Virus record (IMG/VR): IMGVR_UViG_3300008448_000113
Span: 1 to 54,025 of that record
Strand: one strand, 5' to 3'
Source: a virus
Lineage: Duplodnaviria > Caudoviricetes
Length of the DNA: 54,025 nt
Under the pieces are notes generated by a model. The model saw only the letters and a program-made list of their open reading frames with translations, made no database searches and had not been told where the DNA came from. Position numbers and translations under genes: made by a program. Within the stretch, counting starts at the first letter, position 1; each line of letters opens with the position of its first letter. Below are positions 1 to 8,539 of the stretch, piece after piece.

Positions 1-1785
1 CCCATCGGAGTCATAGGGTCATCGGGATCTACGGGTCCAACGGGTGCAACGGGACCACAAACAATCACTGGAACCGCGGGTGTGCAGGGAGTTAGTGGTG
101 TTGCGGGTACTGCTGCGACGGGTGTACAAGGACCAACCGGACCTGTAGGTTCTACCGGACCAACGGGACCGTTGGGATATTCGGGTTCCACGGGCGTACA
201 GGGTATTACAGGTGTTACAGGGTCTACTGGACCATTAGGTTCAACAGGTCCAACGGGTGCAACAGGTGCGATAGGTCCGAGTGGACGGCAAGGAATTCAA
301 GGTATTACCGGTGTGATTGGTGTAACCGGTCCTTCTGGAGATATCGGTCCAACTGGACCCATAGGAATAACCGGACCAACTGGAGTAGGCCCCGCTGGGT
401 CAACTGGCCCTGTGGGAGAATCGGGACCGATAGGATCACAAGGAATTAGAGGAGCAACTGGACCTACCGGTGCGGCAGGACCATCGGGAAGTACAGGACC
501 AAACACATTCGGTGGTGCGGGAATTTCTGGACCAACGGGTGCAACGGGTGTCATCGGTGTAACAGGTCCAACAGGTGCACAAGGACGAACGGTATATTAT
601 GTTACCGGTGTTTGTGCGGCGGTCCACGCAAATGCAACCACAACGCATACCGACACAACAGTATATCACAGTGATACGTCAACTCCACATGGTAATTCTG
701 TTGCACATTCCAACATAACCATCGCAGGGTCACACGCTAATATCGCTGCATCACACACAGATTCAACAGCACATACGAACGCAACTACTACACACGGTGA
801 TGGTACCACAACGCACACAAATAGTAGTATTGCGTTTACAAACACGACTGCTCATAGTAACATTTCACCATCGCATAGTGATATTATCACTCACACAAAT
901 ATTTCCACAATTCACGGAGATGGTACACCACATACTAATATTGCGGCATCACACGCAAATGAAGCTGCGGTTTCACATACAGATAGTGCAACGCATTATG
1001 ATGGTGCTACGGAATTTGTTAATATTACCACACACTTCGATGTAGACCCATCACACGTAGATGGAGTACCTCACACAAACGTAAGTCCATTTCATGCAGA
1101 TGAAGCACCATCACATTCAAATTACGCAGCATCGCATGCAAATATCGCAGGTAATCATACCGATACAACCAATTTACACATAGATTACTATCTTGGTATT
1201 GACCCTGTTACGCACGGTGATACTCCTGCTAGTCACGCAGATATCACATCACCACATACAAATTATGCAGTACCGCATTCCGATGGGACTTCAAATCATT
1301 CAGATATAACAGTACCGCATTCCGATATCACAACGCATGCAAACACATATAGTACTCATTATGATCAAATAGCACATCAAGATACTGTAGCAAGTCATGC
1401 AAACTTTGTTGATCATTCTGATATCGTTGCTATACCACATTCCAATGAAACAACAAACTTTACAAATAGTGTTGTGCATACGGATATTCCTGCAACACAT
1501 ACTAATATTGCATCGCATGATGATATTACCATAACTCACACGGATATTGTGACACATACTAATATTACAGCGACTCACACCAATATAACGCCGTCACATG
1601 CAAATATATCTCCGTCGCATGCAAATGCAACACCACATACAAATATCAATATATCGCATGACGATATTACTATTACTCCAAGTCATACTAATGCAACACC
1701 ACACACAAATATTACCACCGCACACTCAAATGTAGCAGCATCGCATTCAAATGTCGCGGCATCACATTCGAATTCTACCACGTAA
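1..1785 (+). CDS. Collagen-like fibre protein with C-terminal HxD/N repeat array (5'-partial)
   Basis: Frame is open from base 1 ([15 protein letters not shown]...), so the true start lies upstream of the window. Gly-X-Y (GPT/GST/GAT) repeats run to about 585. H-x-[DN] motifs then recur every 6-9 aa from 625 to 1773. Confidence 0.85.
625..1773 (+). repeat. Coding HxD/N repeat array 1
   Basis: Units such as [14 protein letters not shown] and HANISPS; roughly 55 units estimated from length and period. Confidence 0.9.
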
Positions 1786-1790
1786 TCATT

Positions 1791-2639
1791 ATGCCACGTT
1801 TTTTTCCGCTTGGTACACCAACTACCGCTAGTATAGCCAAAGCAGCATTATTTGCGTTTACTGCAAGTATTGCTTTAAACGCAAATGTACTCACTGCATC
1901 ATTTGCTTCGGGTTCTGTTGGTGTGATGGGAGTTGGAGGACCAACCGGTCCACGAGGACCAACAGGAATATCTGCTTCTGGGTCCACTGGACCGACCGGT
2001 GCAACTGGACCAACGGGACCGGCAGGTGTAGGACCAACGGGACCGTCCGGTGTGATAGGAATAACGGGTATTACAGGAACCACAGGACCAACAGGATCTA
2101 CGGGTCCAACCGGTGCAACGGGACCAACCGGACCAACTGGAATAGTCGGTATTACAGGACCAGTTGGTCCAACGGGTATTGGGTCATTAATATCGGGAAG
2201 TACTGGTGTACAAGGTTCTACGGGAGCAACAGGTCCAACAGGTACACGAGGTGCAACGGGAGTAACAGCGGGTGTCATTGGTATTACTGGTGCTAGTGGA
2301 TTGGCAAATATTATTGGTCCTACGGGACCGGTAGGAGCAACAGGACCTACTACCATCGGTGGAACAGGACCAACCGGACCACAAGGGTCTGCAGGACCAG
2401 TTGGACCAACGGGACCGAGTGCAGACGCACCATTAACAGGTTCGTTGGGTGTTGGAGGTATTACGGGAATTCAAGGACCAACCGGAGCACAAGGTATTCG
2501 TGGAGCAGACGCAGGATGTCCAGCAGGAACCGTAGTATGTACGGGGTTATCCCCATCCAATACATCATTGTATGGATTGGTATGTGCAACATTACCAACT
2601 GGATGTGGTGGTAGTTTTACATGCCCACCGACAATCTAA
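1791..2639 (+). CDS. Collagen-like protein with Cys-rich C-terminus
   Basis: Gly-X-Y (GPTG) repeats, a hydrophobic Ala-rich N-terminal segment, and 5 Cys in the last ~40 aa. Confidence 0.85.
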
Positions 2640-2679
2640 ACTACTTATATAAGATAAATTGATTACATCGGAGTGATAA

Positions 2680-5289
2680 ATGCCAAAAGCACCAGGCAGT
2701 GTATGGGTAAGTGGAACAGAATTTCATTTTGTCGATAATACGGGTGTAGAATACTACTATATCGGTACATCGGTAGGAACTCCTGCCGGTGCAGTGCCTG
2801 GTTCTATTTGGGTCGATAGTAGTGATTTTCATTATATCGATTCGTCGGGAACGGATAGATTAATTGCAAGTACCGACTTAGGAGCAGTATCAGGAGCACG
2901 ACCAGGATCAGTTTGGGTAGAAAGTACTTTTTGGAATTGGATATCATCGGGTACAAATAAAAGAAGAGGACACACTGATGTTGCTGCAAGTCATACCGAT
3001 TTAACAACTCCCGCCGCACATACAAATGCAACTACCGCATTTGTTAATTCTACTATACCCGCATCACATACCGATGGTACTACAGCTCACACCGATGCAA
3101 CTACCACGGCATCACATAGTGATGCCACTACAACACATACGGATTTAACTACCCCCGCATCGCATAGTGATGGTACAACCCCTCATAGTGACGGAACAAC
3201 CCCCGCATCGCACAGCGATGGTACCACACCACATAGTGATGCCACAACAACTGCGTCGCACAGTAATGCAACAACACCTCACAGTGACGGTACAACCCCT
3301 GCGTCACACAGTAATGCAACAACTGCACATAGTGACGGTACAACTCCTGCATCACACAGCAATGCAACAACTGCATTTGTTAATTCTACAATAACAGCAT
3401 CGCACAGTAATGCAACAACAGCATTTGTCAATTCCACCGTACCTGCATCACATAGTGACGGAACAACTCCACATAGTGATGCTACCACACCAGCATCGCA
3501 TAGCGATGGAACAACTCCGCATAGTAACGCCACAACAACTGCTTCACACAGTGATTTAACAACACCATTTGCTAATTCTACCACACCAGCGTCGCATAGT
3601 GACGCAACTACAACATTCGTTAATTCCACAATACCTGCATCACATAGTGACGGAACAACTCCACATAGTGATGCTACCACACCAGCATCGCATAGTGATG
3701 CGACGACATCACATAGTGATGCTACAACACCCGCGTCGCATACAAATTATGCAACGCATTCTAATATAAGTACTCCACATGCAAATGCCGCATCGTCGCA
3801 TAGTGATTTCGCATCACATTCAAACGTGGCAGCTTCACATGGAAACGTAACCGGACATGCAAATACAGCTGCATCACATACCAATTATGCAACACATGCC
3901 AATGCCCCATCGTCGCACGCTAATATTATAGCACACTCAAATCAAGCGGCAAGTCATACTAATTATGCTACACATGCAAATGAAGCACCTACACACACTA
4001 ATTATGCAATACACGCAAACACACCAGCCGATCATAGTAATACGTACACCCAACACGGAAATACTCCAGGAAGTCATTCCGATACAACTATTATTCACGT
4101 AGATTATTATTTTGGTTTTCCAGAAGAAGCTCACGGAGATGTTCCGGCCAGTCATGCAGACACTTCGATAACACACGACGATGGGCCAGCGTATCATAGT
4201 AATTATGCAGCACCTCATTCAAATTATGCATTACATGGTGATGATACAATCTTCCATTCGGATGATGCATCGCATGGTGACGATACAATCTTCCACACAA
4301 ATTATGCAACGCACGATGATTCTACAAATCCCCACACAAATTATGCAACGCATGGGGACGATACAATCTTCCACACAAATTATGCATCACACACAAACTC
4401 ATCTGATCCTCATGCAAATATCATAAATCATTCTGACGGAACTACACCACATGCAAATACTTCCCCGTCACATGGAAATCAAACACCGCATGGTGATGCA
4501 ACAACCAACCCAAGTCACACCAATATCAGTCCTTCGCATTCGGATGGAACAACACCGGCAAGTCACGCGAATATTGTAGCATCACACTCAGATATAACTA
4601 TAAATTCAAGCCATACAGATATTGCGGCATCACATGCAGACGCAACAACGAATCCAAGCCACACGGATGTTTTGGCATCACATACGGATGGAACAACACC
4701 AGCAAGTCATTCAAATATTAGTCCATCGCATGCAGACGCAACAACTAATCCGAGTCATGCAAATATTAGTCCATCGCACTCGGACGCAACAACGAATCCA
4801 AGCCATACTAACATTGTTGCATCGCACTCCGATGGAACAACACCGGCAAGTCATACAGATATTGCTGCGTCACATTCCAATGCAACAACGCCAGCAAGTC
4901 ATGCAAATATAGCATCTGCACACACCAACGCAACCACAAGTCCAAGTCATGCAAATATTACCCCGGCACACACCAACGCAACCACAAGTCCAAGTCACGC
5001 AGATATTGTCGCATCACATTCTGATGCGACAACACCGGCAAGTCACGCGGACATCGTTGCTTCGCACTCGGATGGAACAACCCCCGCAAGTCACACAGAT
5101 ATTGCCGCATCACACTCTGACGGAACAACACCGTCGAGTCACGCAAATATCGCAGCATCACATTCCGATATAACCATTAACCCAAGTCATACAGATATTG
5201 TTGCATCACACGCGGACGGAACAACCAATCCAAGTCACAGTGATGGAACTACGGTGCACAGTGACCAACCTGTACTTGTTGGGGCTTGA
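2680..5289 (+). CDS. Giant HxD/N repeat protein (putative fibre, putative radical SAM substrate)
   Basis: N-terminal ~95 aa contain three PGS[VI]WV repeats, followed by ~765 aa of H-x-[DN] repeats. Confidence 0.85.
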   Translation: MPKAPGSVWVSGTEFHFVDNTGVEYYYIGTSVGTPAGAVPGSIWVDSSDFHYIDSSGTDRLIASTDLGAVSGARPGSVWVESTFWNWISSGTNKRRGHTDVAASHTDLTTPAAHTNATTAFVNSTIPASHTDGTTAHTDATTTASHSDATTTHTDLTTPASHSDGTTPHSDGTTPASHSDGTTPHSDATTTASHSNATTPHSDGTTPASHSNATTAHSDGTTPASHSNATTAFVNSTITASHSNATTAFVNSTVPASHSDGTTPHSDATTPASHSDGTTPHSNATTTASHSDLTTPFANSTTPASHSDATTTFVNSTIPASHSDGTTPHSDATTPASHSDATTSHSDATTPASHTNYATHSNISTPHANAASSHSDFASHSNVAASHGNVTGHANTAASHTNYATHANAPSSHANIIAHSNQAASHTNYATHANEAPTHTNYAIHANTPADHSNTYTQHGNTPGSHSDTTIIHVDYYFGFPEEAHGDVPASHADTSITHDDGPAYHSNYAAPHSNYALHGDDTIFHSDDASHGDDTIFHTNYATHDDSTNPHTNYATHGDDTIFHTNYASHTNSSDPHANIINHSDGTTPHANTSPSHGNQTPHGDATTNPSHTNISPSHSDGTTPASHANIVASHSDITINSSHTDIAASHADATTNPSHTDVLASHTDGTTPASHSNISPSHADATTNPSHANISPSHSDATTNPSHTNIVASHSDGTTPASHTDIAASHSNATTPASHANIASAHTNATTSPSHANITPAHTNATTSPSHADIVASHSDATTPASHADIVASHSDGTTPASHTDIAASHSDGTTPSSHANIAASHSDITINPSHTDIVASHADGTTNPSHSDGTTVHSDQPVLVGA
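2971..5265 (+). repeat. Coding HxD/N repeat array 2
   Basis: HSDGTTP/HSDATTPAS-type units with 7/9 spacing in the outer arms and 6/7 spacing in the inner arms; roughly 100 units estimated. Confidence 0.9.
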
Positions 5290-5314
5290 CAAATAGTTAA
5301 CTTAGTAGTATATT
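5286..5314 (+). promoter_or_regulatory. Sigma70-like promoter upstream of the radical SAM gene
   Basis: TTGACA-N17-TATATT, followed by an AGAGG Shine-Dalgarno before ATG 5347. Confidence 0.8.
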
Positions 5315-5346
5315 AAAGTTTGATTCATTAAAAGAGGTTTTATTAT

Positions 5347-6648
5347 ATGACAATTGAGTTAGAACCAGTTGGAGTAGTATGTAATTTAAGTTGTCCATAT
5401 TGCTATGAACATCCGATGCGTGATGCTGGAAACTTTCGGCATAAAACGTATAGCGTCGAAAAGATGTTACAGGGATTGGAACGTGAGGGTGGTCACTTCA
5501 CATTATTTGGTGGTGAACCATTATTAACGGATATTGACGATTTAGAAACCATTTTTAAATGGGGATACGAACGTTACGGTGGTAACGGTATCCAAACAAA
5601 TGGTACGTTAATAACCGAACGTCATATTGAAATGTTTAAAAAATATAAAGTGCACGTGGGTATTTCCGTGGACGGACCAGATGATATGAATGATACTCGT
5701 TGGGCTGGTTCCTTGGAAAAGACACGGGAATCCACACAGAAGTCCATGCATGCTATCAAACGATTGCTGGATGAAAAAATGTCAATGGGTATTATTATTA
5801 CTGTCCATAAAAAGAATGGATTGCCCAAGTATAGAGAACGATTTAAAAATTGGATTCGGGAATTAAAATCTTGGGGAGCAGACGGCGCACGATTACATCC
5901 GTTGGAAGTTGATCATAGTGCTGTTGGTGAGACGTTGGCATTGTCGTCTGAACAAAATATAGAATTTTTGTTGGACATGTGGGAATTTGAAATTTCCGAA
6001 TTGAAGGGAACATTTACCTTTGATATTTTCCGTGACGTAGATTATATGATGCGTGCAGCGGATAATAGTGCAACGTGTACATTCTTGGCATGTGACCCAT
6101 ACACAACACACGCAGTACAGGGAATTGATTCACAAGGTAATCAATCAAATTGTGGTCGTGGTAATAAAGACGGTATCAATTGGATTAAAGCCCAATATGA
6201 CGGATTTGAACGACAAATGGCATTGTATCACACCCCAGAAGAACATGGTGGTTGCCAAGGATGTAGATTCTTTGTAATGTGTAAGGGGCATTGTCCGGGT
6301 ACTGGATTGGATATGGATTGGAGAAATAAACCAGATTCGTGTCTAAGTTGGAAAGTTTCATTTGGTATTTATGAAAAGTTGATGTTGAAACGAGGTGAAA
6401 CACCGTTATCATTACATCCAGACTTAAAGAAATACGAAGAGTTAATGTTACACGGATTCAGCCGTGGGGTTGAATTACGTTTGTCTCAAATCAAAAAACA
6501 TTTGGAAACGGGATATAATCTCGACGCATATATAGAAGCAACATTGGAAAACATGAGACGAGGATTTCCAAAACCACACGCCGACCACACAGATAATACA
6601 GGCAAATATAAACAAGAGTATTTTGAGAAGTACGGTATAGAACTTTAA
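5347..6648 (+). CDS. Radical SAM/SPASM-domain peptide maturase-like enzyme
   Basis: CNLSCPYC (CxxxCxxC), FGGEPL, QTNG and ISVDGP motifs. C-terminal Cys cluster CTFLAC...C...CQGCRFFVMCKGHCPG...C is SPASM-like. Confidence 0.9.
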   Translation: MTIELEPVGVVCNLSCPYCYEHPMRDAGNFRHKTYSVEKMLQGLEREGGHFTLFGGEPLLTDIDDLETIFKWGYERYGGNGIQTNGTLITERHIEMFKKYKVHVGISVDGPDDMNDTRWAGSLEKTRESTQKSMHAIKRLLDEKMSMGIIITVHKKNGLPKYRERFKNWIRELKSWGADGARLHPLEVDHSAVGETLALSSEQNIEFLLDMWEFEISELKGTFTFDIFRDVDYMMRAADNSATCTFLACDPYTTHAVQGIDSQGNQSNCGRGNKDGINWIKAQYDGFERQMALYHTPEEHGGCQGCRFFVMCKGHCPGTGLDMDWRNKPDSCLSWKVSFGIYEKLMLKRGETPLSLHPDLKKYEELMLHGFSRGVELRLSQIKKHLETGYNLDAYIEATLENMRRGFPKPHADHTDNTGKYKQEYFEKYGIEL

Positions 6649-6666
6649 AACATAAGAGGATATGTT

Positions 6667-7050
6667 ATGGAAAACGGAATATTACACGCAGACCACATTG
6701 ACGAAACTGGTGCATACGCACGACGATTTCAAGTTGTTAAGGAGTTGGTAGACAATGGAACATTGACACAAATTCCAGAAGAATTTCGTGTAGGTGCAAC
6801 CGCATTATCACAGCAGGAAGTAGTTCCTGTTACACAAGAAAATTCCAAATTTTCATTTTATGATGAGTTTGGTCAAAAGCACGCAGACCACGTAGATGAA
6901 ACGGGTGAGTATCGTAAAGCATGGGAATCCATGTTTGGTCCTATGAACGGGGATAATAATGTATCATCCGAAGATACTCCTGCAAATACCGAATGGAAAT
7001 CGTTCCTACAACAGTTAATTGCAGAAGAAAAAGCAAAACTCAATATTTAA
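6667..7050 (+). CDS. Small acidic protein with two HADHxDETGxY motifs
   Basis: AGAGG SD; the motif is shared with the radical SAM C-terminus. Confidence 0.75.
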   Translation: MENGILHADHIDETGAYARRFQVVKELVDNGTLTQIPEEFRVGATALSQQEVVPVTQENSKFSFYDEFGQKHADHVDETGEYRKAWESMFGPMNGDNNVSSEDTPANTEWKSFLQQLIAEEKAKLNI

Positions 7051-7066
7051 TTTTAACCCAAAGGTT

Positions 7067-8539
7067 ATGCAACGTTTAAATAGTGTATTACCAGATTGGA
7101 CACGAATACAGTGGACCAACATGGAAAATAAAATAAAGTATGGTCCAATTTTAAATTCCATAACACATGCGTGGAAACAAATTGAACGAATGTCTGTTGT
7201 ACACGATTTACGATCCTGTACATTAGATAGTATTAGTTCCACGGAACTTATAGCACTGACAGAAGAATACAAGAAATACGGTGTGTACATTGTTCCATTG
7301 GCAAAGGAAGGAATAACACACACATATTCTTCTACAACACAACCATATATTAACGGTAAACCCTATCGTTTGCGTGTGGTGTTTACAAAGTCGGAAGAAC
7401 TGGCACAAGAATTTTTCACGGTGTGGAATGCACCGGTGCTGGATAATTCCCGAATTGGTGAACTTCTTGGGTATCCAAAGTGTTGTACCGATTTTTATAA
7501 AAAGTATTGGGTTGATCAACGATTTGTAGATACTACGTGGGTAATGTCGGTTGATAAATTACCAATTGACGAAGAGGCACGAACCGTACATATTAAATCC
7601 GACACACCACCAGAATGTAATATTTTGTGGCGTTGGCAGGGTGTACGATTGGTTTCGCATTTACCATGTTCATTTGATTGTGAACATACGGTTGATATTG
7701 GTAGACGAAATGCAGAACTTGGACGTAAACTTGGATTCAATGCTGAAATGGATTTGGCATACGAGTTGTTGACTTGGCCTGTGGAATGGTCTGCGTTACA
7801 CGGTATTGCGGAAATTAAAACGCCAATCAACAAAGTATCCTCACGTACAGATATGACACCGTGGAAATACACAGTACAAAAACATAGTGATATGTATCCA
7901 GAAGATGGCGCATCGGGTACCATGTATCCGTACACAGAAAAGAAACTCAAGATTAAACCAATAACTACAACTAAGTCGTTTTTGAAATCACTTGAAGATA
8001 CATCTGTTTGGGAAGAAAACGGATTCCGTTACAAGGAAGCAATGGATCATTTTCACGAAGTGGTAGTTGAAGCAATTGGTAATATGAAGTATGTACCTTC
8101 GGGTAATGTCCTTGACCTTGGTTGTGGTAATGGTGTATTGTTAGGTCGTGTTGTTGGAGACAGAGCAGACTTAATTCCACATGGTGTTGAAATGGACCGT
8201 CAACGATGTATGTCGGCAGCAACCACTATCCATTGGGGATATTTCACGTTGGGTAATATATTCGACCTCAATACATGGAAGGAAGATTATTATAGTATGG
8301 TGCTGTTGATGCCAGGACGTTTGATGGAAACTGCAAAAGAAACGGCAGAGGCATTCAGAAAACAATTATACGATAAGACAGACTTACTACTTATTAATCT
8401 GACATGTGATTGGACTGTTAAGTATAAGACTATCGATAATATGATGGTGTTAACCGGTCTAGACAAAGATTGGGAACCGGCTGGTCCTGTTGTACATAGA
8501 AAGGATGATGTCGCTCAATTATTTAAGAGGAAAGTGTAA
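7067..8539 (+). CDS. Cys-motif (DUF483-like) domain fused to a class I SAM methyltransferase
   Basis: GELLGYPKCC and HLPCSFDC motifs; C-terminal VLDLGCGNG. Start refined to ATG 7067 after AAGG. Confidence 0.7.
   Translation: MQRLNSVLPDWTRIQWTNMENKIKYGPILNSITHAWKQIERMSVVHDLRSCTLDSISSTELIALTEEYKKYGVYIVPLAKEGITHTYSSTTQPYINGKPYRLRVVFTKSEELAQEFFTVWNAPVLDNSRIGELLGYPKCCTDFYKKYWVDQRFVDTTWVMSVDKLPIDEEARTVHIKSDTPPECNILWRWQGVRLVSHLPCSFDCEHTVDIGRRNAELGRKLGFNAEMDLAYELLTWPVEWSALHGIAEIKTPINKVSSRTDMTPWKYTVQKHSDMYPEDGASGTMYPYTEKKLKIKPITTTKSFLKSLEDTSVWEENGFRYKEAMDHFHEVVVEAIGNMKYVPSGNVLDLGCGNGVLLGRVVGDRADLIPHGVEMDRQRCMSAATTIHWGYFTLGNIFDLNTWKEDYYSMVLLMPGRLMETAKETAEAFRKQLYDKTDLLLINLTCDWTVKYKTIDNMMVLTGLDKDWEPAGPVVHRKDDVAQLFKRKV

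Follow-up and report, generated by a model that had tools for sequence, protein, structure and literature searches.

What is conserved in a phage fibre protein when histidine, the residue that leads most of its repeat units, gives way to phenylalanine? The question is raised by two long open reading frames (ORFs) in a viral contig, IMG/VR record IMGVR_UViG_3300008448_000113, which is called the window here; it has 54,025 bases, the entire record, and is estimated to represent about 29% of its genome. The products of these frames, proteins A and B, hold together about 150 units of the form His/Phe-x-Asn/Asp. A preliminary description of the DNA had noticed eight units led by Phe and had proposed that the selected unit is 'aromatic-x-Asx' (Asx, Asn or Asp), which would favour enzymatic cross-linking over simple binding of metal by His of the kind seen in the T4 gp37 long-tail-fibre needle, whose HxH motifs bind iron. 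The present analysis finds that the fibre proteins are strings of three-residue aromatic-x-Asx units, a rule that holds throughout their family. Directly downstream of protein B lie genes for a radical S-adenosylmethionine (rSAM) enzyme with a SPASM domain and for a DUF483 protein, a context absent from the preliminary description. The units may be sites at which positions 1 and 3 become cross-linked. The features that carry the repeats are as follows.

1..1785, + strand: protein A, 5' end cut by the window, at least 594 amino acids (aa); a collagen-like G-x-y region, then H/F-x-N/D units
625..1773, + strand: repeat region of protein A (aa 209-591), spacing mostly 7 and 6
835..843, + strand: F-T-N unit of protein A, 7 residues after the previous unit and 6 before the next
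1015..1023, + strand: F-V-N unit of protein A, register 7/6
1459..1467, + strand: F-T-N unit of protein A, register 7/6
2680..5289, + strand: protein B, 869 aa; threefold GSxW N-terminal domain, about 104 H/F-x-N/D units, tail H-S-D-Q-P-V-L-V-G-A
2680..2970, + strand: N-terminal domain of protein B, three hairpin-like GSxW...Y.D..G..R repeats, delimited from alignments
2971..5265, + strand: repeat region of protein B (aa 98-862), spacing 7, 9 and 6
3040..3048, + strand: F-V-N unit of protein B, register 7/9
3376..3384, + strand: F-V-N unit of protein B, register 7/9
3424..3432, + strand: F-V-N unit of protein B, register 7/9
3568..3576, + strand: F-A-N unit of protein B, register 7/9
3616..3624, + strand: F-V-N unit of protein B, register 7/9

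All eight positions reported for Phe encode F-x-N in the frame of the two ORFs. Every His of protein A (53 of 53) is followed at +2 by Asn (28) or Asp (25), and so are 97 of the 99 in protein B, the remaining two sitting in the N-terminal domain; over both proteins, position 3 is Asn or Asp for 150 of 152 His and is never Ser. If His alone is used as an anchor, odd gaps of 13 residues (three, in A) and 16 residues (five, in B) appear, and these become 7+6 and 7+9 when the Phe units are counted. The 7/9 spacing that had been reported as preserved is thus exact for all five Phe units of B, but the three of A keep a 7/6 register instead. With His and Phe together as anchors, the gaps in A are 7 (34 times), 6 (15), 3 (2), 8 (2), 9 (2) and 12 (1), and those in B are 7 (54), 9 (32), 6 (14) and 12 (1). 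Eight of the 17 Phe residues in the two repeat regions occur as F-x-N, a number reached in none of 20,000 composition-preserving shuffles (maximum 7). The replacement of His by Phe is real and in register.

The eight Phe units are not eight separate events. Those of B are 69-81% identical to one another over 48 nucleotides, with mostly synonymous differences, and are old, diverged copies of each other; the three of A are only 35-58% identical in nucleotide sequence to all other units. Because the B units are copies and the A units are unrelated in DNA, the Phe cases amount to about four independent ones. The Phe units are maintained through selection on the protein. An F-V-D at nucleotide 1405 (HANFVDHSD) was ruled out as a further replacement, since it sits inside an ordinary 6-residue His-His gap. 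A reading of F-x-N-S-T as an N-glycosylation sequon was dropped, position 4 being equally often Ile or Val. Unit lengths are irregular (3-9) and neither protein matches a Pfam pentapeptide family at E<=0.01, which led to the rejection of a regular beta-solenoid or pentapeptide fold. The single 12-residue gap of each protein is formed by a similar interrupting element, H-[IV]-D-Y-Y-[LF]-G, at 1177-1221 in A and 4096-4140 in B (H-V-D-Y-Y-F-G-F-P-E-E-A-H-G-D in the B form), which is possibly a hinge.

Close relatives follow the same rule with larger numbers. With the rSAM protein as query, 23 viral contigs were found, and three Thermus phages were added from a phage collection. The window and loci L003-L015 constitute the window's own clade, in which 34 distinct repeat regions (identical regions counted once) comprise 7,274 residues. 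Asx stands at +2 of all 874 His (383 Asn, 491 Asp), of 138 of 156 Phe (135 Asn, 3 Asp) and of none of 92 Tyr; Trp is absent from these regions. The fraction for Thr, 0.22, comes from T-D-N and T-I-N within units and not from position 1. Within this clade only His and Phe occupy position 1, so that 'aromatic' is too broad a description of it. Gaps between units are 5, 6, 7 or 9 residues regardless of the starting residue: from His to Phe 5 (38) and 7 (52), from Phe to His 7 (34) and 9 (52), from Phe to Phe 5 (39) and 7 (7). When only His is counted there are 101 gaps of 12-24 residues, and 20 long gaps are left once Phe units are included, two of them being the H-[IV]-D-Y-Y-[LF]-G elements in the middle of A and B. 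The exchange of His and Phe can be seen directly in clade stretches such as HSNIGHSNIGFTNIGFSNIG. Five-residue units such as HSNIG occur in relatives and not in the window. The codons for His (CAY) and Phe (TTY) lie two changes apart, and the one-step intermediates are nearly absent from position 1 (Tyr 0/92, Leu 2/22).

These observations bear on an explanation in which the units are left unmodified. The chains would form a trimer in which positions 1 and 3 face the threefold axis, three His and three Asx bind a metal much as in the T4 gp37 needle, and aromatic triads with a ring of Asn or Asp serve as metal-free plugs; the rSAM and DUF483 proteins would act elsewhere or only assist assembly. 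His with Asp or Asn is a classical metal-ligand pair, the units of protein A are joined to a collagen-like region, a motif that obligatorily forms trimers, and irregular unit lengths (5, 6, 7, 9) would be tolerated by identical chains in register. Counted over whole ORFs, with identical repeat regions taken once and units that are not independent, Phe in the clade is paired with Asn 231 times and with Asp 11 times, and His is paired with both (465 and 548), as expected if Asp needs a cation or imidazolium. Most of the 20 leftover gaps resemble units without an aromatic and without Asx, as in HTNIA-AISSTTPAS-HTD; the loss of Asx from these rare units also suits such a trimer. On the other side, HxH is lacking (none of the 152 His has His at +2), and a metal ligand is not present at every layer position: eight units of the window have Phe, and close relatives, whose rSAM proteins share 74-82% identity with the window's, have proteins in which Phe leads between 0 and 45% of the units.

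The wider family, reached through the N-terminal domain of B, shows which parts of this pattern are general. A profile of the domain, run against 1.84 billion entries, matched 564 cluster representatives at E<=0.001, and 90 of the best 150 matches have at least five H-x-N/D units. Residue rules were derived from 107 of these 150, in each of which the domain is followed by 40 residues or more; the 43 excluded ended less than 40 residues beyond the last GSxW-like motif, had at least 700 aa, or were without such a motif. Among the 107 members the fraction with Asx at +2 is 0.92 for His (1325/1446), 0.42 for Phe (118/281), 0.40 for Tyr (268/662) and 0.32 for Trp (53/165). For the other 16 residues it lies between 0.05 and 0.14 throughout, against an Asx frequency of 0.208. 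Only His, Phe, Tyr and Trp are thus enriched two residues before Asx; 68% of the 2,579 Asx have an aromatic there, and homologues do not place non-aromatic residues freely at position 1. Units are separated by spacers of 0-6 residues. Among the aromatics His predominates by far, with Phe as the alternative in the window clade and Tyr or Trp in others.

The aromatic-x-Asx unit that the preliminary description took to be selected is therefore borne out across the family, but its 'always F-x-N' is a peculiarity of the window clade, as among the 107 members Phe has Asp as its partner in 68 cases and Asn in 50. Tyr-x-Asp (210) and Trp-x-Asp (38) are common as well, so the charge argument made above for the unmodified trimer is not a general one. 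In 16 of the 87 proteins that have six units or more, 50% or more of the units are led by an aromatic other than His, and one member, P0105, carries 12 units with Phe and none with His; other members are rich in Tyr or Trp. Ligation of metal by His is thus not what is selected for in every unit, and an unmodified metal-binding trimer would also leave the linkage to the rSAM and DUF483 genes, in unrelated phages and in bacterial loci with a small, secreted-looking repeat protein, without explanation. That explanation is accordingly regarded as unlikely.

More distant loci, where identical regions were again counted once and spurious GC-rich frames of L034 and L036 were excluded by hand, agree with the rule: in the Thermus phages and L016-L025, Asx follows at +2 of 41 of 161 Phe, Tyr or Trp and of 57 of 1314 other non-His residues, and in loci from bacterial metagenome-assembled genomes (MAGs) the counts are 29 of 69 and 77 of 898. 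The N-terminal domain is itself built of a unit of about 30 residues, GSxW[VI]xG..[LF].[YF].D..G..R, present three times in B. Among the best 150 matches are proteins without His units that have this 30-residue unit many times over (as many as 17 matched stretches, in one of 2,001 aa); the GSxW domain thus also exists on its own. A conserved tail, aromatic-x-Asx-[QR]-P-[VE]-x-[VI]-G, closes the repeat proteins that have this domain; in B it reads HSDQPVLVGA (5257-5286). A loose form of it is found in 51 of the 107 members, with homologues in L002, L010, L017, L026 and many of the family proteins, and it could be a recognition or capping element. Searches of viral and metagenome contigs gave no locus for the Phe-only P0105 or the Tyr-rich P0104, and one related locus (L106) for the Trp-rich P0012. 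Annotations of family cluster members read 'hypothetical protein' or are missing in 10 of 10 cases. A three-copy structure prediction of B residues 1-300 scored 0.01, the modelled fold itself being uncertain, and speaks neither for nor against a trimer; in the ESM Atlas, residues 1-260 gave a poor model (pLDDT 0.45) and leads all below 0.8, with weak rows to choline-binding repeat proteins.

The genes that follow protein B are these.

5347..6648, + strand: rSAM/SPASM enzyme, 433 aa, candidate maturase of the repeat units (Pfam Radical_SAM, 2.1e-16)
6667..7050, + strand: small protein, 127 aa, with two copies of H-A-D-H-x-D-E-T-G-x-Y
7019..8539, + strand: DUF483 protein with a C-terminal methyltransferase-like domain; alternative start ATG at 7067

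The trio of repeat protein, rSAM enzyme and DUF483 protein recurs in Thermus phages, in other viral contigs and in bacterial MAGs. The rSAM proteins of the Thermus phages phiLo, Cumys and phiMa are 48-51% identical to that of the window and their DUF483 proteins 29-33%, and in their repeat proteins 54/54, 75/78 and 93/97 of the His occur in H-x-D/N. The repeat protein of Cumys and phiMa, 344 aa long and located in the baseplate/fibre module, has an N-terminal domain 38-40% identical to that of B. Both phages can be grown on a laboratory strain, Thermus thermophilus HB8. Within a collection of 50,697 phage records the domain is found in two, both of which belong to the three with an rSAM protein at 48-51% identity; a megablast search of the same collection with window positions 2680-8539 gave no match. 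The repeat protein lies near the rSAM gene in the window and in 21 of 25 phage loci, and in the other four just 258-3,453 bases are present upstream of the rSAM gene. Starting from the substrate side, one new locus was found, in which the rSAM gene is directly downstream of the repeat protein. Genome contigs gave no match to the single rSAM sequence, but a query with an alignment found loci, including ten from bacterial MAGs with rSAM proteins 37-50% identical to that of the window, and in nine of the ten an H-x-D/N-rich ORF adjoins the rSAM gene. The aromatic-x-Asx unit is the sole feature common to the repeat proteins that adjoin rSAM genes, which is the pattern by which pairs of maturase and substrate are usually recognised.

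The settings of the repeats vary between loci. Among the MAG arrays, two form the C-terminal ends of longer ORFs (933 and 1,371 aa), two belong to small proteins whose starts resemble signal peptides, and one consists of H-E-N-V-S. Gene order in L030 (12713-13342), L034 (12701-13654) and L027 (12777-13367) is rSAM, DUF483, repeat protein, and two of the repeat proteins begin in the manner of a signal peptide (RRxLLxxGW...AxA). To judge by these predicted starts, such MAG proteins would be secreted products and not phage fibres. Masked runs (X/N) inside the repeat ORFs of L029 (1461-2405) and L033 (8282-9977) make their unit counts lower bounds. In the viral locus L024 (8001-13542) two rSAM paralogues and two DUF483-like genes precede a repeat protein made almost wholly of H-S-N units (16 H-x-N, 1 H-x-D). 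A second viral clade, represented by L017 (178-3933) and L022 (1161-5438), has a 195-219-aa repeat protein directly after a fibre-like protein of 1,252-1,426 aa; there DUF483 precedes the rSAM gene, and the rSAM protein is without the HxD tail described below.

The enzyme is of the radical SAM class with a SPASM domain. Its CX3CX2C motif occupies residues 12-19, with no N-terminal extension before it, and 16 orthologues share, without exception, C12, C16 and C19 and the SPASM pattern C249-x14-G264-x4-C269...C303-x2-C306-x5-C312-x3-C316...C332. Triceptide synthases are SPASM rSAM enzymes that join the aromatic ring of position 1 to the beta-carbon of position 3 (PMC11002830; PMC11499958). Because the residue rule found here (H/F/Y/W, any residue, Asx) is the triceptide motif, cross-linking of the same kind appears the most likely fate of the units, and the SPASM rSAM and DUF483 genes that travel with the repeats supply a concrete candidate enzyme. 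In the proposed mechanism the units would be the target motif of the downstream rSAM/SPASM enzyme, which would act together with the DUF483 protein. S-adenosylmethionine would be cleaved by the enzyme, a hydrogen would be abstracted from the beta-carbon of the Asn or Asp at position 3, and this carbon would be joined to the aromatic ring at position 1, so that each unit becomes a small triceptide-like i-to-i+2 macrocycle. The product may be a stiff, protease- and heat-resistant trimeric fibre with about 100 rings per chain, the trimer being suggested by the fusion of protein A to a collagen-like region. From gene neighbourhood and by analogy with the triceptide enzymes we infer that the repeat proteins are the substrates, that the Asx beta-carbon is attacked and that a carbon-carbon bond results. 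That the units on the virion fibre are sites of such cross-linking is given about an even chance.

A number of points weigh against this reading. All of the chemistry is drawn by analogy, and the known triceptide substrates are short peptides and not large structural proteins such as these (200-870 aa). The rSAM protein reaches the cut-off of no curated NCBIfam family. Its best match over the whole length is anSME (TIGR03942; 80.2 bits against a cut-off of 349.45, 1.5e-22), followed by DynA and then by the cyclophane synthases AmcB (67.6 bits, cut-off 425) and YhhB (66.1, 445); GrrM/OscB (53.2, 310), FxsB (46.5, 370) and XyeB (42.3, 450) also fall below their cut-offs. Among sequences of PDB chains it is nearer to anSME (4k37, 6.7e-13) than to the triceptide synthase ChlB (1.2e-6). 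An AlphaFold model (mean pLDDT 77.4) compared at full length by Foldseek gives anSME 4k39 (E 1.3e-10, TMq 0.56) and ChlB 9gm3 (E 2.3e-9, TMq 0.58), with the remaining rSAM enzymes well behind; the modelled fold is about equally like the two, which are effectively tied. Cross-linking predicts neither the preference of Phe for Asn in the window clade (231 against 11, with His taking both) nor the exclusion of Tyr from position 1 there, and a model of packing or charge does predict the former. One bacterial locus, L032, has the rSAM gene and no repeat ORF was seen in it. The preference that the preliminary description gave to enzymatic cross-linking over His-metal binding thus gains from the aromatic rule and the rSAM linkage, but it is reached through gene neighbourhood and analogy, and the enzyme resembles anSME at least as much as it does a triceptide synthase.

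The standing of anSME raises the possibility that the rSAM enzyme modifies the units by some other chemistry. anSME acts on the side-chain beta-carbon of a protein substrate, and a related reaction might oxidise or hydroxylate the Asx beta-carbon; other candidates are epimerisation, a bond of the C-N or C-O type, or bonds between chains, with a methyl group perhaps added by the DUF483/methyltransferase protein. The place of anSME as closest match in sequence and in NCBIfam, and its tie with ChlB in fold, would fit such a reaction, as would the fusion of the window's DUF483 protein, with its four invariant Cys and one His, to a methyltransferase-like domain. The His-Xaa-Ser system, moreover, yields +8 Da and not -2 Da on its repeat (PMC13128918). 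Against this, an aromatic exactly two residues before Asx is what defines triceptide substrates, and a reaction on Asx alone would not need the aromatic. An outcome other than cross-linking of the triceptide kind, though catalysed by the same enzyme on the same units, is considered improbable.

A third proposal removes the repeats from the reaction altogether. The authors who described the Thermus phage Cumys in 2024 reported a three-gene 'rSAM module', the third gene encoding a protein of unknown function, and proposed DNA modification because cyanobacterial homologues lie near deazapurine DNA-modification genes (PMC11437467). Their suggestion is a further point against cross-linking, and in it the repeat proteins would be bystanders of an rSAM/DUF483 pair that acts on DNA. 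The repeat protein, however, is the gene that stays with the rSAM gene across hosts, the enzyme has the SPASM architecture of a peptide maturase, and no gene of the TGT/DpdA family is found in the 54-kb record, which is about 29% complete. Modification of DNA is accordingly held to be very unlikely.

Another idea, in which the neighbouring enzymes would have nothing to do with the repeats, is that the units form a multivalent sugar-binding surface for recognition of host glycans, with rings that would stack on sugars and Asx that would hydrogen-bond to them. Pairing of an aromatic with Asx is known from lectin sites, and the proteins sit in tail-fibre gene modules. Sugar binding gives no reason for a strict i/i+2 geometry, for the presence of 92-100% of His in the motif or for the enzyme linkage, and variants made of Phe alone or of His alone should differ greatly in how they bind sugars, so that little credence is given to this idea. 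Cross-linking by the rSAM enzyme is thus retained as the working explanation. In its most extended form it would have phages apply chemistry of the kind known from peptides that are synthesised on ribosomes and modified after translation (RiPPs) to a virion protein, with about 100 consecutive His/Phe/Tyr/Trp-to-Asx macrocycles per chain made by a new SPASM family with DUF483, which would also serve bacterial secreted repeat proteins; this full combination is offered tentatively, its chance being put at somewhat less than even.

Two further genes follow that of the enzyme. The DUF483 assignment (Pfam 2.1e-6; 28.2 bits, cut-off 25) is accompanied by weak matches to MTS and MetW in the C-terminal part, and the Thermus phage versions are without the methyltransferase-like domain present in the window's protein. 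Its invariant residues, GYPxCC and H198-L-P-C201-x3-C205, include four Cys and one His, a conservation that suggests a metal or cluster site. The model (pLDDT 73.9) has no Foldseek match in the PDB at E<=0.001; in VIA-align the best matches, 2guk (of unknown function, Z 8.0) and the cysteine methyltransferase NleE (Z 5.4), extend over no more than residues 31-153, and naming a function from these structural matches was rejected as they are too weak.

The 127-aa protein matches nothing in Pfam, NCBIfam or PHROG. Each module has three copies of a motif H-A-D-H-x-D-x-[TS]-G-x-Y-(x4)-[FWY], two in this protein and one at the C terminus of the rSAM enzyme (6577-6645), whose tail reads H-A-D-H-T-D-N-T-G-K-Y. 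The enzyme thus itself bears units that resemble those of the substrate. The small gene with both of its motifs is kept in the window and in 13 of 13 related T4-like loci, and the rSAM proteins of the Thermus phages likewise end in runs of HxDHxD. Roles as partner or in recognition for the DUF483 protein and for this motif are guesses.

The module genes lie in the first 8.5 kb of the contig, all on the + strand, and the contig carries markers of a T4-like phage: a baseplate hub (Pfam T4_baseplate, PHROG 150), a UvsX-like recombinase, a DnaB-like helicase and ribonucleotide reductase. Protein A matches Pfam Collagen (1.9e-22) and PHROG tail fibre families (phrog_5073, 1.1e-53 over residues 95-321); in protein B neither a collagen region nor a PHROG match is seen. 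One further gene stands between the two.

1791..2639, + strand: collagen-like protein with a Cys-rich C terminus and without H-x-N/D units

This protein (Pfam Collagen 1.2e-19, with matches to PHROG tail fibre families) probably belongs to the same fibre module as A and B. Its Cys-rich end runs to ...CGGSFTCPP, and a similar end is found on some repeat proteins of L007 and L013.

If the units are cross-linked, the chemistry of peptide natural products would reach virus particles, and a stable fibre made of polar, low-complexity sequence would be explained, also for the Thermus phages of hot springs. A function would be at hand for the orphan 'rSAM module' and for DUF483, and a natural enzyme would be known that processes about 100 sites on one protein and accepts His or Phe (Tyr or Trp in relatives). 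Covalently stapled biological fibres of this sort would be new, and no larger substrate of a cyclophane-forming enzyme would be known. Should the units prove unmodified, the fibre architecture would still be a new one: a layer of metal-binding His and an aromatic plug could stand in for each other. Enzymes of this class and motifs of this type were already known; new here are the repeat rule, its link to the rSAM/DUF483 pair and its presence in phage fibre proteins that offer about 100 sites. Literature searches for His-x-Asp/Asn repeats, for tail fibres with rSAM/SPASM and for triceptides with bacteriophages turned up nothing on the subject, although supplements and a survey of the triceptide landscape, which lie outside the coverage of these searches, might list one.

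Several known systems resemble this one in part. The T4 gp37 needle is likewise a fibre of a T4-like phage with periodic His motifs at i and i+2, but the window proteins have no HxH, carry Asn or Asp at position 3 and may have non-ligand Phe, Tyr or Trp at position 1. anSME is the best sequence and fold relative of the window's enzyme, which scores 80 bits against the cut-off of 349; however, the neighbours are here repeat proteins with almost no Arg, so that a sulfatase motif cannot be present in number, and the 54,025-base record, about 29% complete, has no sulfatase (no PF00884 match). The marks of collagen-like phage tail fibres, G-x-y repeats and matches to tail-fibre families, are present in A and in the product of 1791..2639. 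The same three genes as in the 'rSAM module' of Cumys and phiMa are found, with identities of 48% for the rSAM protein, 32-33% for DUF483 and 38-40% for the N-terminal domain; the word 'histidine' is absent from the main text of the Cumys paper, and the passages available from it make no mention of repeats (PMC11437467).

A further parallel is the HXS antiphage system, in which the His-Xaa-Ser repeats of HxsA are matured by the rSAM proteins HxsB and HxsC with HxsD (PMC13128918). Both combine a full protein, as opposed to a small peptide, that has His-x-small-polar repeats with rSAM enzymes and a small partner, but HXS has five repeats with Ser at position 3, its product is a bacterial periplasmic defence effector, and the +8 Da change affects one site (PMC13128918). 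The HxsB and HxsC families are not among the best 25 of the 57 NCBIfam matches of the window's rSAM protein.

The triceptide synthases offer a parallel in the motif itself. In the portions of the literature covered, XncB and OscB join Phe-C4 to the beta-carbon of Asn, OscB joins Trp-C7 to that of Asn or Asp, YxdB joins Tyr-C3 to that of Asp, and HaaB and YhhB join His-C2 to a beta-carbon (PMC11002830). The His pairs described there are with Ala, Arg or Lys (PMC11002830; PMC11499958), and a His-x-Asn/Asp motif as such is not described in the parts examined; the His-specific HtkB also cyclises an H1F variant (PMC11499958). Unlike these enzymes, the rSAM protein of the window lies below every curated family cut-off, and a DUF483 partner always accompanies enzymes of its type. 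Unlike triceptide precursors, its presumed substrates are phage fibre proteins of about 190 to more than 869 aa, which carry as many as about 104 units together with a collagen or GSxW domain and show no obvious leader; homologues have about 180-630 aa. Like the triceptide synthases, it has SPASM and is without an N-terminal recognition domain, and as in the triceptide systems (the 3-CyFEs XncB, OscB, MscB, YxdB, HaaB, YhhB, HtkB and ChlB) a presumed substrate in which aromatic-X-X3 motifs recur is encoded alongside the enzyme.

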